A stretch of DNA of 58,696 bases from an uncultured Candidatus Saccharibacteria bacterium (GTDB taxonomy: Bacteria; Patescibacteriota; Minisyncoccia; Phycocordibacterales; Zambryskibacteraceae): assembly GCA_964364225.1 (NCBI GenBank), contig CAYIKP010000001.1, forward strand, positions 3,789 to 62,484. The letters are read 5' to 3'. Positions 35,613 through 50,185 of this stretch are shown piece after piece. A model generated the notes under the pieces. It was not told the origin of the DNA. It was given only the letters and a program-made list of their open reading frames with translations, and searched no databases. How positions within the stretch are numbered: position 1 is the stretch's first letter; each line of letters starts with the position of its first letter. A program made the translations under genes and the position numbers.

Positions 35613-35689
35613 ATACACAGCAGTACAGTAACATCCCGTTTCTAACTGGTTTTACAACGCACTCGCCCTAAGTGGGCAAAGGAGTCACC

Positions 35690-36361
35690 GTGATCAACCG
35701 GAGCCGCTACAACGCTGTGGCCAACTACCTCAAGGCAGTGGCCAAGAAGATGGTCGAGGCGCTCAAGGATGCCGAGAACATCATCCCGCAGTTCGCGATT
35801 CCCGCCGACGTCTTCGCGAGCTCGAACAAGGATGCGAATGCCGTGATGAACACGGTTCGCCAGCTGGAGCTCGATCCCGAAGGTGCGAACATCGTGCGTC
35901 TGCAGGACGCCGGTGCATTCGCGGACGAGATCGCCTCGTACTTCGGCGAGCGCAAGAGCCTCGAACAGCGCTTCCTGCACTCGCAGTGGCTCTCCGACGA
36001 CATGTACAACCGTATCGTCGTCCTGCCGAACGAGTTCGCGGAACCCCTCATCATCCTCTGGAAGGCGTATGACGCCATCCGGCAGAATGGTGCGGAGACC
36101 TCCGAGCTTCGGAGCGCGTGGACCGAGATCGACAAGAAGCTTCGTGCTGCCGAGATCGCCTCGGTGGGGAAGGAGCTTCGCGAGTCGAACCCGGCTCGTC
36201 GGGTCAGGCTGACGCTGGCGCCGAAGCCCGTCGCGAGCGCCTCTCCCAAGGGACGCAACGCTGAGAAGCGCCAGCACGATCGGCAGATTCGCGCGTCCAT
36301 GCAGCAGGGCAAGGGTACCGCGTCGAACAGCAAGGCCAAGAAGAACAAGAAGCACGCCTAA
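35690..36361 (+). CDS. GC-rich orphan protein with a Lys/Arg-rich C-terminal tail, function unknown
   Basis: About 60% GC (36/60 on line 35701) against 35% in the flank; AAAGGAG 5 nt before GTG 35690 (ORF-track start GTG 35672 is in frame); the plus strand is chosen because the promoter, SD and terminator are all on the plus strand. Confidence 0.6.
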   Translation: MINRSRYNAVANYLKAVAKKMVEALKDAENIIPQFAIPADVFASSNKDANAVMNTVRQLELDPEGANIVRLQDAGAFADEIASYFGERKSLEQRFLHSQWLSDDMYNRIVVLPNEFAEPLIILWKAYDAIRQNGAETSELRSAWTEIDKKLRAAEIASVGKELRESNPARRVRLTLAPKPVASASPKGRNAEKRQHDRQIRASMQQGKGTASNSKAKKNKKHA

Positions 36362-36382
36362 CCGGCACGCGAGAAACGGGGA

Positions 36383-36416
36383 ACAGCCATCTCTAAAGGG
36401 TGGCTGTTTTCTTTTG
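36383..36416 (+). terminator. rho-independent terminator of the GC-rich cassette
   Basis: acagcca-tctctaaaggg-tggctgt followed by tttcttttg. Confidence 0.7.
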
Positions 36417-46771: not shown

Positions 46772-47483
46772 AATACCCCAAATTATTCCTTCAATTTTAG
46801 AAGATAAGTTTGTTGAGATAGAGAAAAAAGTGGAAACCATTTCTTATGATTCTTCGTGGGTGCAGATTGATATTGTCGATGGAGTATATGCGCCATACAA
46901 AACCTGGCCATTTTTAAAGACGGATGACGAAGACTTAAAAGCATTAGTTCAGGAAGATAAGTCACTTCCTGAATGGGAAAATGTTTCTTACGAGTTTGAT
47001 TTAATGGTTGCTAATCCTAGAGCTGTCGCAGATACATTTGCAATGGCGGGAGCTTCTAAAATAATTGTTCATTATTCTTCATTTAAAGATGGGGAAGAGA
47101 TGGGAGTTTTTTTAAGGGAATTTAAAAATAGATACACTTTGCATGGCCCACTTTCAGTGGAATTGGGTTTAGCGATTGGGACTGATATAAATATAGAAGA
47201 AATTTTAAAATACAAAGACACAGTTGATTTCGTGCAGTTGATGGGGATTGATCACATAGGAAGACAAGGTGAAAAATTTAATGAAAACACAATAGAGCGT
47301 GTGGCTGAGCTAAAGAAGCTAGCACCAGAGATGGGTATTCAGGTAGATGGGGGAGTAAAAGAGGAATATATACAAAAATTGGTTGAGGTTGGGGTAGACA
47401 GAATAATTGTGGGTTCTGCTATTTGGAAAGCAGAGGACCCTATAGAAGAGTTTGAAAAATTTTTAGAAATTGCCTCAAAATAA
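46764..47483 (+). CDS. rpe: ribulose-phosphate 3-epimerase-like TIM-barrel protein
   Basis: IIPSIL...VQIDIVDG...VDGGV pattern; overlaps rpiB by 8 nt. Confidence 0.75.
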   Translation: MNKIPQIIPSILEDKFVEIEKKVETISYDSSWVQIDIVDGVYAPYKTWPFLKTDDEDLKALVQEDKSLPEWENVSYEFDLMVANPRAVADTFAMAGASKIIVHYSSFKDGEEMGVFLREFKNRYTLHGPLSVELGLAIGTDINIEEILKYKDTVDFVQLMGIDHIGRQGEKFNENTIERVAELKKLAPEMGIQVDGGVKEEYIQKLVEVGVDRIIVGSAIWKAEDPIEEFEKFLEIASK

Positions 47484-47512
47484 GGGTTTATTTTGAGGCC
47501 CCTATTTACTAC

Positions 47513-47541
47513 TTGACAAACAACTAATTTAGGTATATACT
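47513..47541 (+). promoter_or_regulatory. sigma-70-type promoter (TTGACA-17-TATACT) of the DGR target gene
   Basis: TTGACA at 47513-47518, 17-nt spacer, TATACT at 47536-47541. Confidence 0.65.
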
Positions 47542-47575
47542 AGGTCTAGTAAAGTACCTTAATAAACCACTTGCA

Positions 47576-47634
47576 TCGCCATAGCTTTTAGAGCTTCAAA
47601 TCAGATTAATTTGGAGAATTAAAAGCTATGGCGA
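47576..47634 (+). promoter_or_regulatory. long 5'-UTR hairpin upstream of the DGR target gene
   Basis: Perfect 15-bp stem tcgccatagctttta/taaaagctatggcga with 29-nt loop; followed by a gctatc-GCAA-gatagc hairpin (47664-47679) and GGGAGA SD. Confidence 0.6.
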
Positions 47635-47694
47635 CACAACGGTCGTCCACTGGCAAACTAGCTATCGCAAGATAGCGCTTCATGGGAGAACCCT

Positions 47695-48303
47695 ATGAGC
47701 ACCAACGCAACACTGGACCAGGCCGGTCACGTCCTTCGTCTCGTAAGCGACAAGGGCGTCACCAAGGAACAACTGGCGGGCATCGTGAACGACGGCACCC
47801 TGCCGGACTTCCTCGAAGCCGTGGCAACGGGCTCTAACAAGAGCCGGGAAGAACTTCGCGCTTTCCTCGGCCTCGGCCCGCTCGTCCTCTCGGTCATCGT
47901 GGATTACACGATGAGCCTCGCCGATATGATCAAGGCGGGGAAGTACGACTGGACGAACCACGACATCACCGAGAAGCGATTCCCCGTGAAGGGCGAGGGC
48001 AAGAAGGAGACCGCCGTCGAACTCATCCACTTCAACCGTGTGATGAACTCCAACCAGGTGGAGCAGGAACTCGACAAGATGGGACTTCGTCCCGGAACGA
48101 CCGAGGAACTGCTCGCCTTCGGCGCGACCTTCCCGGAAACGCAACGGAAGTTCCCTATCCTCGCGCTCGGCTCAGTCGCCGAGATCAGCGGTGGTCGCGT
48201 CGTGGCGTACCTCGACGGGGGCGGCTCCGAGCGTAGGCTCCGCCTGTACTGGCCTGACAACGACTGGAGCGTGGTCTGTCGGTTCCTCGCTGTTCGCAAG
48301 TAG
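47695..48303 (+). CDS. DGR target (variable) protein, GC-rich
   Basis: 202 aa; the last 43 codons are the VR; about 63% GC (38/60 on line 47761); GGGAGA 5 nt before the ATG; C-terminus ...YWPDNDWSVVCRFLAVRK. Confidence 0.85.
   Translation: MSTNATLDQAGHVLRLVSDKGVTKEQLAGIVNDGTLPDFLEAVATGSNKSREELRAFLGLGPLVLSVIVDYTMSLADMIKAGKYDWTNHDITEKRFPVKGEGKKETAVELIHFNRVMNSNQVEQELDKMGLRPGTTEELLAFGATFPETQRKFPILALGSVAEISGGRVVAYLDGGGSERRLRLYWPDNDWSVVCRFLAVRK
48169..48297 (+). repeat. DGR variable region (VR)
   Basis: 129 nt, gap-free match to 48658-48786 with 23 mismatches, 22 of them at TR adenines. Confidence 0.9.
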
Positions 48304-48358
48304 TACTCTGGCACTCGGACCTTGGATCAGACGCTTTGATCCTTTGGCCCTTGAGCGC

Positions 48359-48394
48359 GGCCCCGACACGAGATGTGTCGGGGCCGTTTCATTT
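48359..48394 (+). terminator. GC-rich hairpin / terminator downstream of the VR
   Basis: ggccccgacac-gagat-gtgtcggggcc (48359-48385) followed by gtttcattt. Confidence 0.7.
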
Positions 48395-48657
48395 ATATAA
48401 ATTTCTTCTATACAATGATAATGACAAATGAAAAATCTAAGGTTACGGCTTTAGGTAATTTGTCCGCACACCTAGGTAATGAGAATTTCGGAGATTACGA
48501 TTTCCGAAAGAGGGTTTCTAGGTTTGGATTAAAAACTAGAGAAAGTTGGTGCGATACACTTTGTGATAATAAAGATCACGAATACGATTCAATCTCAAAA
48601 GTCCGACTAAGATTTTTCGGACTTAAGAGATGGTGGCATGGATGGCGTGTCGCACAT

Positions 48658-48786
48658 GGCTCAGTCGCCAAGATCAACGGTAACCGCAACGTGGCGTACC
48701 TCAACAGGAACGACTCCAAGCGTAAGCTCAACCTGAACTGGCAAGACAACGACTGGAACGAGATCTATCGGTTCCTCGCTGTTCGC
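48658..48786 (+). repeat. DGR template region (TR)
   Basis: Adenine-rich copy of the VR with 9 AAC codons in the VR frame; the last 18-19 nt have no A and are identical to the VR. Confidence 0.9.
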
Positions 48787-48788
48787 TA

Positions 48789-49121
48789 CTATCCATGGTT
48801 CTCCTGGGATTTGTTCCCAGGAGTTTTGTTAACAAGTTGTCTCTTCCAACCCCCGAGCATTTTCCCAATCTCGTTAAGCATTTCAGATATATGAGTATAT
48901 TTTTTTGTATCAAGTGCTTTTATTTCCCAAGCAAGTTGTAAAAGAAGTTTTATTAGATCAACCCTTGAAATTGCTCTATCAACTAGCACAATTTTTTCCA
49001 CACTTGTTGAGTAACTTGCGAGAAAACAATATTCAATGGCAGCCAAAAACACGTCGTCAATCTTCGAACCGAGTGTAAAACGATTTGCTTTCGGAAAATG
49101 TGTTAAAAACCCTTGCCACAC
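48789..49121 (-). CDS. avd: Avd-like four-helix-bundle accessory protein (N-terminally incomplete as called)
   Basis: ...FPKANRFTLGSKIDD...EIGKMLGGWKRQ resembles the DGR Avd / 23S-IVS four-helix-bundle family; lies on the strand opposite to TR and RT; the frame stays open upstream of GTG 49121. Confidence 0.7.
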   Translation of the reverse strand: MWQGFLTHFPKANRFTLGSKIDDVFLAAIEYCFLASYSTSVEKIVLVDRAISRVDLIKLLLQLAWEIKALDTKKYTHISEMLNEIGKMLGGWKRQLVNKTPGNKSQENHG

Positions 49122-49204
49122 GCCGTATACATCCTTAAGCTTGAGTACAACAGGTATCAGTCTCTCGCTAAATCGTGCGGGGGGGGAGACTTTAAAGTAA
49201 ATAA

Positions 49205-50185
49205 ATGAGAATTGGATTCATTCATACATATAAAGATATCATCTCTGTTGATAATTTACTTCTTGCATGGAAGGAATTTTTGAAAGGAAAAAGAAATAAA
49301 AAAGATGTTCAACAATTTCAAATTAAATTAATGGACAATATTTTTGAACTTCACAATGATTTAGTAAATAAAAAATACACACATAGTGATTATTATGCTT
49401 TTAATATTTCTGATCCAAAACCTAGAAATATTCATAAAGCATCTGTACGAGATAGGCTACTTCATCATGCAATATATAGAACTCTCTATGCTTCTTTCGA
49501 TAAAACATTTATCAAACGACTCTTATTCGTGCAGAAAATTTAAAGGTACTCACCGTGCAATAAAAAGATTTCGTCAATTCATATATAAAGTAAGCGAAAA
49601 CAATACTAAGACATGTTGGATACTGAAGTGTGATGTACGAAAATTCTTTGCATCAATAGATCAGAATTTACTTTTGGAAATCATTGGTAAATATATTCAA
49701 GATAAAGATATAAATTGGCTTCTTTCACAAATCGTTACTAGTTTTTCTTCAACAAAGGAAGGTATTGGTTTACCGCTTGGCAATCTCACATCTCAATTAT
49801 TAGTGAATGTGTACATGAGTGAATTTGATTATTTCATGAAGCATACATTAAAAACAAAATATTATATCCGTTATGCTGATGATTTTGTAATCTTGTCTCA
49901 AGATAAGAAATGGTTGGAAAGTATACTTCCAGAAATACGAATATTTCTTTTAGAAAAACTTAAACTTACTCTACACCCAGATAAGATATTTATTAAAACC
50001 CTTGCCTCTGGTGTTGATTTCTTGGGTTGGGTACATTTCTGTGACCACAAAACTTTAAGAACTAGTACAAAGAGAAGAATGTTTAAAAAATTCAAAAGTG
50101 CTGTGCCCAAAAAGTATTTGATTCCTATTTTGGCCTTTTAGGGCATGGAAATACGCACAAATTAAGAAAACAGCTAGTGCTATAA
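49205..50185 (+). pseudogene. DGR-type reverse transcriptase with two single-nucleotide frame breaks
   Basis: LPLGNLTSQ (DGR-type GxxxSQ) and YIRYADDFV (YxDD); break 1 at atcaaac 49511-49517 (FDKTFI | NDSYSCRKFKGTH), break 2 at the A5 run 50109-50113 (SAVPKK | VFDSYFGLLGHGNTHKL); restored stop at 50183-50185. Confidence 0.85.

Follow-up and report, generated by a model that had tools for sequence, protein, structure and literature searches.

The DNA examined here is a stretch of 58,696 nt (the window) from contig CAYIKP010000001.1 of an uncultured Candidatus Saccharibacteria bacterium, and the subject is an element inserted between the rpe gene and the split transketolase genes. This element was originally predicted to be a diversity-generating retroelement (DGR), in which a reverse transcriptase (RT) renews the variable repeat (VR) of a target gene from a template repeat (TR) with changes at template adenines. 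The core of the locus consists of the following features:

47695-48303, plus strand: target (variable protein) gene of 202 aa, with a helical N-terminal part of about 60 aa and a C-type-lectin-like part of about 140 aa
48169-48297, plus strand: VR, the last 43 codons before the Lys-stop of open reading frame (ORF) 47695-48303
48658-48786, plus strand: TR, located by repeat finder and recount, with weak homology that may reach back to 48651
48789-49178, minus strand: body of avd, annotated as ORF 48789-49121 from a GTG, the frame continuing upstream (..ARFSERLIPVVLKLKDVYG) to a repeat tract
49205-50185, plus strand: RT gene, 326 aa once two indels, an A inserted at 49514 and a C lost at 50106, are repaired

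The VR and the TR had been described as two 129-nt segments that align without gaps and differ at 23 positions, 22 of which are adenines in the downstream copy. A recount by script returned the same figures, with 16 A>G, 4 A>T and 2 A>C changes from TR to VR and a single mismatch at another base, a C>T difference (TR 48684, VR 48195) in the third base of a codon that reads AAC in the TR and GGT in the VR. Tabulated by template base, the mismatches are A-specific and not spread over the four bases: 22 of the 36 TR adenines are changed in the VR, 92/93 non-A positions match, and under a hypergeometric model 22 or more of the 23 mismatches would fall on A with a probability of 2.1e-14. Eight of the nine AAC codons of the TR are altered, as first reported. 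Both repeats end in an identical, A-free block, previously put at 18-19 nt and measured by script at 19 nt (TCGGTTCCTCGCTGTTCGC), which occurs at these two sites and nowhere else in the window; past it, the flanks of TR and VR diverge. The label of an initiation of mutagenic homing (IMH) site is applied to this block by resemblance only. A repeat finder picked up the pair independently at an offset of 489 nt, and an A-wildcard scan of both strands of the window found no further VR, the best off-target score being 45/93. The substitutions are skewed towards A>G (16/22 in the window), which could reflect either a misincorporation bias of the RT or selection.

Two similar segments might also stem from an ordinary duplication, or from gene conversion between the target gene and a truncated paralogue, with no reverse transcription involved. 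The TR does lie within an open frame of 173 aa (48373-48894, spanning the TR and the leader RNA described below) that gene callers annotate in public contigs. Such an origin is nevertheless extremely improbable: 22/23 differences fall on TR adenines, the frame has no family match, upstream of the TR it holds 2-8 stop codons in 17/19 related cassettes, and further downstream it runs antisense to avd. Upstream of the TR, the sequence changes through compensatory pair substitutions and loop insertions of differing length, with the RNA structure conserved. The frame is peculiar to this genome and was rejected as a gene; the second copy is not part of a paralogous coding gene, a possibility that the original prediction had named as fatal to its case.

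The VR is predicted to form the C-terminal strands of a C-type-lectin-like protein. The AlphaFold2 model of the target has a mean predicted local distance difference test (pLDDT) score of 90.8, and C-type lectin-like domains make up most of its top 50 PDB matches in Foldseek (E~0.03, probability 0.85-0.99), a weak but consistent signal. The protein has 160 homologues and no Pfam domain, and the few homologues with a source name come from Patescibacteria. In the family alignment the scaffold of the VR (G.R.V..L....S.R.L.L.W....W...CRFLAVRK) is kept, and the variable columns are the codons with TR adenines.

Reverse transcriptase, Avd and related cassettes

The coding frame of the RT is A at 49205, changes to B near 49515 and returns to A near 50107, with the stop at 50185; LGNLTSQ and YADD motifs are readable. 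Once repaired, the protein matches Pfam RVT_1. Among solved structures it scores highest against PDB chain 8ub7_A (131.6 bits, E=4e-37), the aligned part of which has the same sequence as Bordetella phage BPP-1 brt (100% identity); group II intron RTs reach at most 72 bits, and chains labelled retron-type RT at most 70 bits. The alignment with bRT passes straight through the first repair site, and some 35 related RTs align over both indel sites in one unbroken segment. These matches support a bRT-like, DGR-type RT adjoining the TR, in line with the original prediction. Neither a group II intron nor an msr/msd RNA was found at the locus, where Rfam gave no such match and the RT is nearer to bRT. 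The Avd-type ORF expected beside the TR was recovered on the minus strand: ORF 48789-49121 matches Pfam bAvd above its cutoff (53.2 bits, cutoff 40) and NCBIfam DivGenRetAVD with E=1.5e-18 (67-69 bits, cutoff 80). Extending the frame upstream widens the NCBIfam match from profile positions 18-103 to 2-103, and the segment ..ERLIPVVLKLKDVYG.. within this extension is conserved in relatives.

For comparison, 80 genome loci with a homologue of the target gene were collected (86 rows including the window and a duplicate contig). Nearly all loci with a lineage name belong to Patescibacteria, and a few titles name other phyla. An RT-bearing cassette is present in 42/86 rows, nearly always in the order target-TR-(avd)-RT; in the usual layout the target, TR and RT lie on the plus strand, the TR lies 390-610 nt after the VR, and avd abuts the TR on the minus strand. 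TR and VR of these relatives differ at 11-23 adenines and at 0-2 other positions (pooled A>G 218, A>T 92, A>C 54), with 11-21 adenine mismatches and zero others at loci L017, L023, L059, L068, L076 and L078. Nucleotide identity of the TR across relatives is 66-86%. About 40 other Patescibacteria genomes contain the cassette, and the chromosomal sites it occupies are unrelated. At L001 (5101-8483), where target and RT are 67% and 69% identical to those of the window, it sits inside the S10 ribosomal-protein operon between L2 and S19 and adjoins a Y1 (IS200-like) transposase gene.

Incomplete arrangements also occur among the relatives. At L033, L006, L085 and L067, target homologues without an RT are followed by shortened leader remnants without a TR, and L061 (5646-6030) has a full leader and an A-mutagenised TR/VR pair with no avd or RT within 5 kb. 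These five loci may represent either decayed cassettes or cassettes whose TR RNA is served in trans. At L031 (4072-6034) and L057 (3865-5718), the target abuts an inverted avd, with no leader match and no TR in the usual place; the C-terminus of protein P0095 reads through into antisense avd.

Together, the A-specific mismatches, the bRT-like RT, Avd, the C-type-lectin-like target and the recurring cassette uphold the interpretation first proposed, and the interval is very probably a chromosomal DGR of the type found in Patescibacteria, or Candidate Phyla Radiation (CPR), with the order target-TR-(avd)-RT. The order TR-(avd)-RT with an inverted avd corresponds to architecture B3 of CPR DGRs (Wu et al., 2018, PMC5758913), and 90% of CPR DGRs are reported to be of this B3 type. 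In DGR clade 2, which is confined to Patescibacteria, the targets have no recognisable domains (Roux et al., 2021, PMC8144416). Component order and Patescibacteria host therefore assign the element to the known CPR B3 class. With B3 and clade 2 elements it shares the inverted avd, the host group, the groundwater habitat, a small target without Pfam or transmembrane domain and the A-to-N pattern; nothing essential differs. It is a typical CPR DGR, and its leader RNA, avd repeat and target GC excess, described below, are clade-wide features not found described: the literature searched, which did not cover Paul et al. 2017, held no prior account of the three, and a search on Patescibacteria DGRs with structured RNA, homopolymeric tracts or slippage found nothing relevant.

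Several observations weigh against this interpretation or against an active element. The Foldseek E-values are only ~0.03, the class placement of the RT rests on pairwise match scores, and the NCBIfam score of Avd lies under the curated cutoff. In the window haplotype the RT carries two frameshifts and the ATG of avd is out of frame, the latter across a homopolymer of a kind whose length can be wrong in short-read assemblies. The VR is identical in both assemblies that cover it (L092 and L093, introduced below), and the target protein matches contain no VR variants, the next match being only 71% identical; with an invariant VR and no close protein variant, no diversification was observed. A covarying pairing between the leader and the 3' end of the TR that could prime cDNA synthesis was not found, and the candidate 5-bp pairings fall in near-invariant, uninformative columns. 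Finally, the functions assigned below to four parts (leader RNA, hairpin, CTTGG repeats and repeat tract) are putative. The absence of an intact, expressible RT and Avd from the window haplotype bears on activity, not on identity.

Alleles, repeat tract and state of this copy

The region of the window is identical to public contig Hain_H52_01um_R2_42 (L092), and other public contigs of the same population differ exactly at the two RT repair sites: L093 is without the second indel, L095 without the first, and L096 without both, leaving an intact 326-aa RT. The contigs L092-L096 derive from wells H51 and H52 and a later run, with coverage of 2.7-8x, and their assemblies may share reads. Since all four combinations are present, the indels are either polymorphisms or errors, the latter being less likely in runs this short; a shared assembly error was considered and rejected, because the combinations recur in several samples, and the indels are probably real. 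The four combinations point to recombination or recurrent mutation in the population. The sole near-identical variant of the target protein carries a T/I change outside the VR.

Two further features bear on the expression of avd:

49179-49186: G8 tract (C8 on the avd strand), inside the 5' end of avd and 18 nt upstream of the RT ATG
49187-49225, minus strand: ATG-led N-terminal segment of avd (MNESNSHLFTLKS), antisense to RT codons 1-7 and in frame +2 to the avd body

In the window, C8 places the upstream start in frame +2, and C9 would restore a continuous Avd of 145 aa. The position of the tract was inspected in 37 relatives, where it is occupied by G7-G14 in 24, (CT)n in 4 and (GT)n in 1. 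Relatives without a repeat have one continuous avd ORF from an ATG antisense to RT codons 1-7. In 25/30 cassettes with a repeat, none of the ATG-initiated frames entering the tract from upstream is in register with the avd body, and the poly-C loci are in frame in 1/26 cases (binomial ~4e-4 against an expected one third). A canonical avd start downstream of the tract was rejected as an explanation, as no ATG, GTG or TTG lies between the tract and the conserved first Avd helix in 24/30 repeat-bearing loci. All assemblies of this genome show G8, with no length variation seen, and the conservation of the N-terminal avd peptide partly mirrors the RT N-terminus. Since cassettes that are otherwise intact usually have avd out of frame, this state alone does not indicate decay. 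The pattern suggests that full-length Avd requires a frame change in the poly-C tract, either by transcriptional or ribosomal slippage or with the tract acting as a mostly-off phase-variation switch, which would keep the mutator usually off or at a low level.

Poly-G phase variation occurs in Campylobacter and Neisseria, and transcriptional slippage in dnaX and mxiE. As in such contingency loci, the reading frame depends on the length of a repeat in the 5' portion of the gene; here, in contrast, the repeat would gate an accessory protein of a mutagenesis system, and the in-frame state is rare. If this holds true, the slippery repeat of avd is a new example of a diversity generator under stochastic control. 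The poly-G could instead serve the RT as a ribosome-binding or spacer element, as it precedes the RT ATG by 6-25 nt, which in some loci is a spacing like that of a Shine-Dalgarno sequence. Together with an independent role of the leader RNA (see below), this alternative is considered decidedly unlikely. At other loci (CT)n or (GT)n stands in the same place, which indicates that a specific G-rich sequence is not what is conserved, and the lack of start codons between the tract and the first Avd helix also speaks against it.

The element appears to have been functional in the recent past and is probably inactive in this haplotype. Its current activity is doubtful because the RT is interrupted twice and the upstream start of avd is out of frame; with the RT broken by two indels the VR is probably frozen now, though an intact RT allele coexists in the population. 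A stronger version of this reading holds that the DGR is dead, the TR/VR pair being a fossil of past homing, RT and avd pseudogenes, and the cassette heading for loss. The RT indels, the out-of-frame ATG of avd and the invariance of the VR between assemblies agree with it, and decay is common, with 44/86 rows lacking an RT and remnants at L033, L006, L085, L067 and L061. Set against these are the occurrence, within this one aquifer population, of an uninterrupted RT allele (326 aa) and of each allele with a single indel, the match of VR and TR at 92/93 non-A positions, a leader that scores second best of all matches (236 bits), and the prevalence of out-of-frame avd in otherwise intact cassettes. 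A dead element is accordingly held to be rather unlikely, if by no means negligible, and a genuine DGR with part of its machinery off in this haplotype remains the preferred description. The coexistence of RT on and off alleles in one aquifer offers a natural experiment, in which RT integrity could be related to VR diversity in public read sets.

Leader RNA and the proposed template transcript

The interval between the target gene and the TR, together with the sequence that follows the TR, contains the following elements:

48410-48417, plus strand: -10-like box TATACAAT (TATAAT or TATACT in relatives), in near-invariant alignment columns
48423-48655, plus strand: leader RNA with seven helices, about 235 nt, directly 5' of the TR
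48423-29/48458-64: leader helix P1
48435-44/48447-56: leader helix P2
48471-80/48514-22: leader helix P3
48486-95/48500-09: leader helix P4
48549-60/48644-55: leader helix P5, ending 2 nt before the TR
48563-67/48575-79: leader helix P6
48592-96/48627-31: leader helix P7
48801-48832, plus strand: terminator-like 3' hairpin CTCCTGGGA-TTTGT-TCCCAGGAG of 9 bp and a TTTTGTT tract, 14 nt past the TR

The stretch from the terminator of the target gene to the TR is conserved at the nucleotide level far better than the neighbouring proteins. Compared with L001, it is 82% identical over 195 nt, against 67-69% in protein for target and RT, and a 46-nt core of the leader is more than 90% identical in several loci. 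RNAalifold predicts 57 pairs in the leader. In an alignment of 17 sequences, 96.3% of the cells are paired, compared with 82% after shuffling (reached by 0/500) and 40-49% with slid partners, and compensatory changes occur at 39/57 pairs. A covariance model of the leader (R1), searched against 84 sources, gave 47 full-length matches with E<=1e-8, each located immediately before the TR if the locus has one. In 22 loci outside the seed, 92.6% of the cells are paired and 49/57 pairs show compensatory changes, in an alignment fitted to the model. Rfam is expected to hold the RT motifs reported by Weinberg et al., among them RT-10, which corresponds to the Bordetella spacer (PMC5737381); a search over 47450-49300 gave no meaningful match even at E<=10, these motifs included, and at gathering thresholds Rfam found only tRNAs in the window.

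The 3' hairpin is called by a terminator scan at 48801-48823 and overlaps the last codons of avd on the opposite strand. Hairpins of 8-9 bp located about 14 nt after the TR and followed by UUUUGUU are present in 24/24 aligned cassettes; their stem sequences vary, and a renewed prediction on 17 of the 24 cassettes again gave a helix, of 9 pairs, with compensatory changes. A generic promoter scan did not call a leader promoter at 48410-48417, where the -35 element is weak. The -10 box and the hairpin with its U-tract suggest that the TR is made as a separate, discrete RNA of about 410 nt, which would extend from the box at ~48410 to the U-tract at ~48832.

Following the Bordetella paradigm, RT-Avd would copy this TR RNA into cDNA, misincorporating opposite A, and the product would replace the VR as far as the A-free 19-nt 3' block. 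The DGR of BPP-1 (mtd-avd-TR-brt) has a homologous RT (E=4e-37), Avd and a C-type-lectin-type target with a C-terminal VR; AAC-rich TR codons, an A-free identical 3' block of VR and TR, a GC hairpin downstream of the VR and a duplex at the TR 5' edge are further features in common. The Bordetella DGR RNA comprises the 3' end of avd (20 nt upstream), the TR and a 140-nt downstream spacer (Sp), which envelops bRT; the sequence immediately before the TR forms a duplex with Sp, stopping cDNA synthesis (Handa et al., bioRxiv 10.1101/2023.10.23.563531). No such downstream Sp RNA was found at this locus, where the TR is followed by 14 nt, one hairpin and a U-tract, about 45 nt in all, and then by antisense avd. 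Instead, a large structured RNA lies 5' of the TR, and the segment at the TR edge pairs upstream, within P5, and not with a downstream Sp. By comparative anatomy, the accessory RNA domain would thus have moved from the 3' to the 5' side of the TR, where the seven-helix domain of about 235 nt may act as a scaffold for binding of RT and Avd. P5, which abuts the 5' edge of the TR, could stop cDNA synthesis in the way that pairing with Sp does in Bordetella.

It is tentatively proposed, as a possibility somewhat less likely than not, that in B3 DGRs a 5' seven-helix domain replaces the 3' Sp within a TR RNA of about 410 nt and that avd is gated by a hypermutable repeat, so that the mutator is on stochastically or at a low level. 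The covariation-supported model puts the accessory RNA on the opposite side of the TR from that in the only structurally known DGR RNA, and it makes priming and stopping of the cDNA in B3 DGRs directly testable. The leader might alternatively be an independent regulatory RNA or a 3' UTR (untranslated region) element of the target. Truncated leader remnants after some RT-less target homologues, as well as the failure to find a priming duplex, would fit such a role. However, the leader is full length in nearly all RT-bearing cassettes, always abuts the TR and ends in P5, and it sits past the target terminator behind its own -10 box; a part in retrohoming is preferred.

Flanks and base composition of the target gene

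The target gene is flanked by signals of its own:

47513-47541, plus strand: promoter-like site TTGACA-17-TATACT, matching 11/12 consensus positions and the best in the region, a consensus match only
47576-47635, plus strand: long hairpin in the 5' UTR, a near-perfect inverted repeat of about 24 bp
~47676-47700, plus strand: smaller hairpin over the ribosome-binding site and the ATG
48304-48356, plus strand: CTTGG-like direct repeats right after the stop codon, a conserved block in the alignment of relatives
48357-48397, plus strand: terminator of the target gene from the terminator scan, a GC-rich 14-bp hairpin with a T-run, 53 nt after the stop

The region 47548-47700 folds with -54.5 kcal/mol (z=-6.7), and nucleotide similarity to the 5' UTR hairpin is present solely in L001 (75%). 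On the other side of the gene, the density of the motif C[CT]T[CT]?GG past the stop codon is 4.1 per 80 nt in RT-bearing loci, about 18-fold above the background of 0.23; the window has three copies. These CTTGG-like repeats are specific to the VR side, and their absence after the TR makes them a candidate marker of recipient versus donor. The 14-bp hairpin of the terminator, which has equivalents after the target in relatives, is possibly the counterpart of the inverted repeat that follows the IMH in DGRs.

The target gene and its UTRs form an island of 62% GC with sharp boundaries (47640-48395) in a genome of 38% GC, and the GC content at third codon positions (GC3) of the target is 0.82 compared with 0.23-0.32 in neighbouring genes. 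These contrasts could indicate that the target is foreign DNA, from a recent transfer or a chimeric assembly, and that its VR adjoins the TR by accident. This is very improbable and was rejected, as the same junctions recur in separate public contigs from several samples and the composition is a property of the family: a GC excess of more than 3 points (mean +13) is found at 84/86 homologue loci, with or without an RT, and the family GC3 is 0.71 for the target versus 0.42 for the adjacent RT, the target being higher in 36/36 loci. The near-complete agreement of the VR with the adjacent TR at non-A positions likewise contradicts an accidental neighbourhood, and a second GC-rich gene (35672-36361, see below) keeps its GC3 at the same site in a 74%-identical relative. 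Adenine mutagenesis was also rejected as the cause of the GC-richness, since T is more strongly depleted than A and the effect covers the entire gene and its UTRs. Within the target, the GC excess is greatest over the VR.

The second island of this kind (35640-36412) comprises a single gene, the 229-aa ORF 35672-36361 between secG and groES, which has its own AT-rich promoter-like sequence and terminator. Its GC1/2/3 values of 0.61/0.41/0.85 are near-identical to those of the DGR target, to which the island is unrelated. The ORF is almost an ORFan, with three protein clusters and no Pfam match. Its relative at L086 has 74% aa identity, lies at the same syntenic site and has 63% GC in a genome of 37% GC; GC3 is 0.79-0.85 across the window and this relative.

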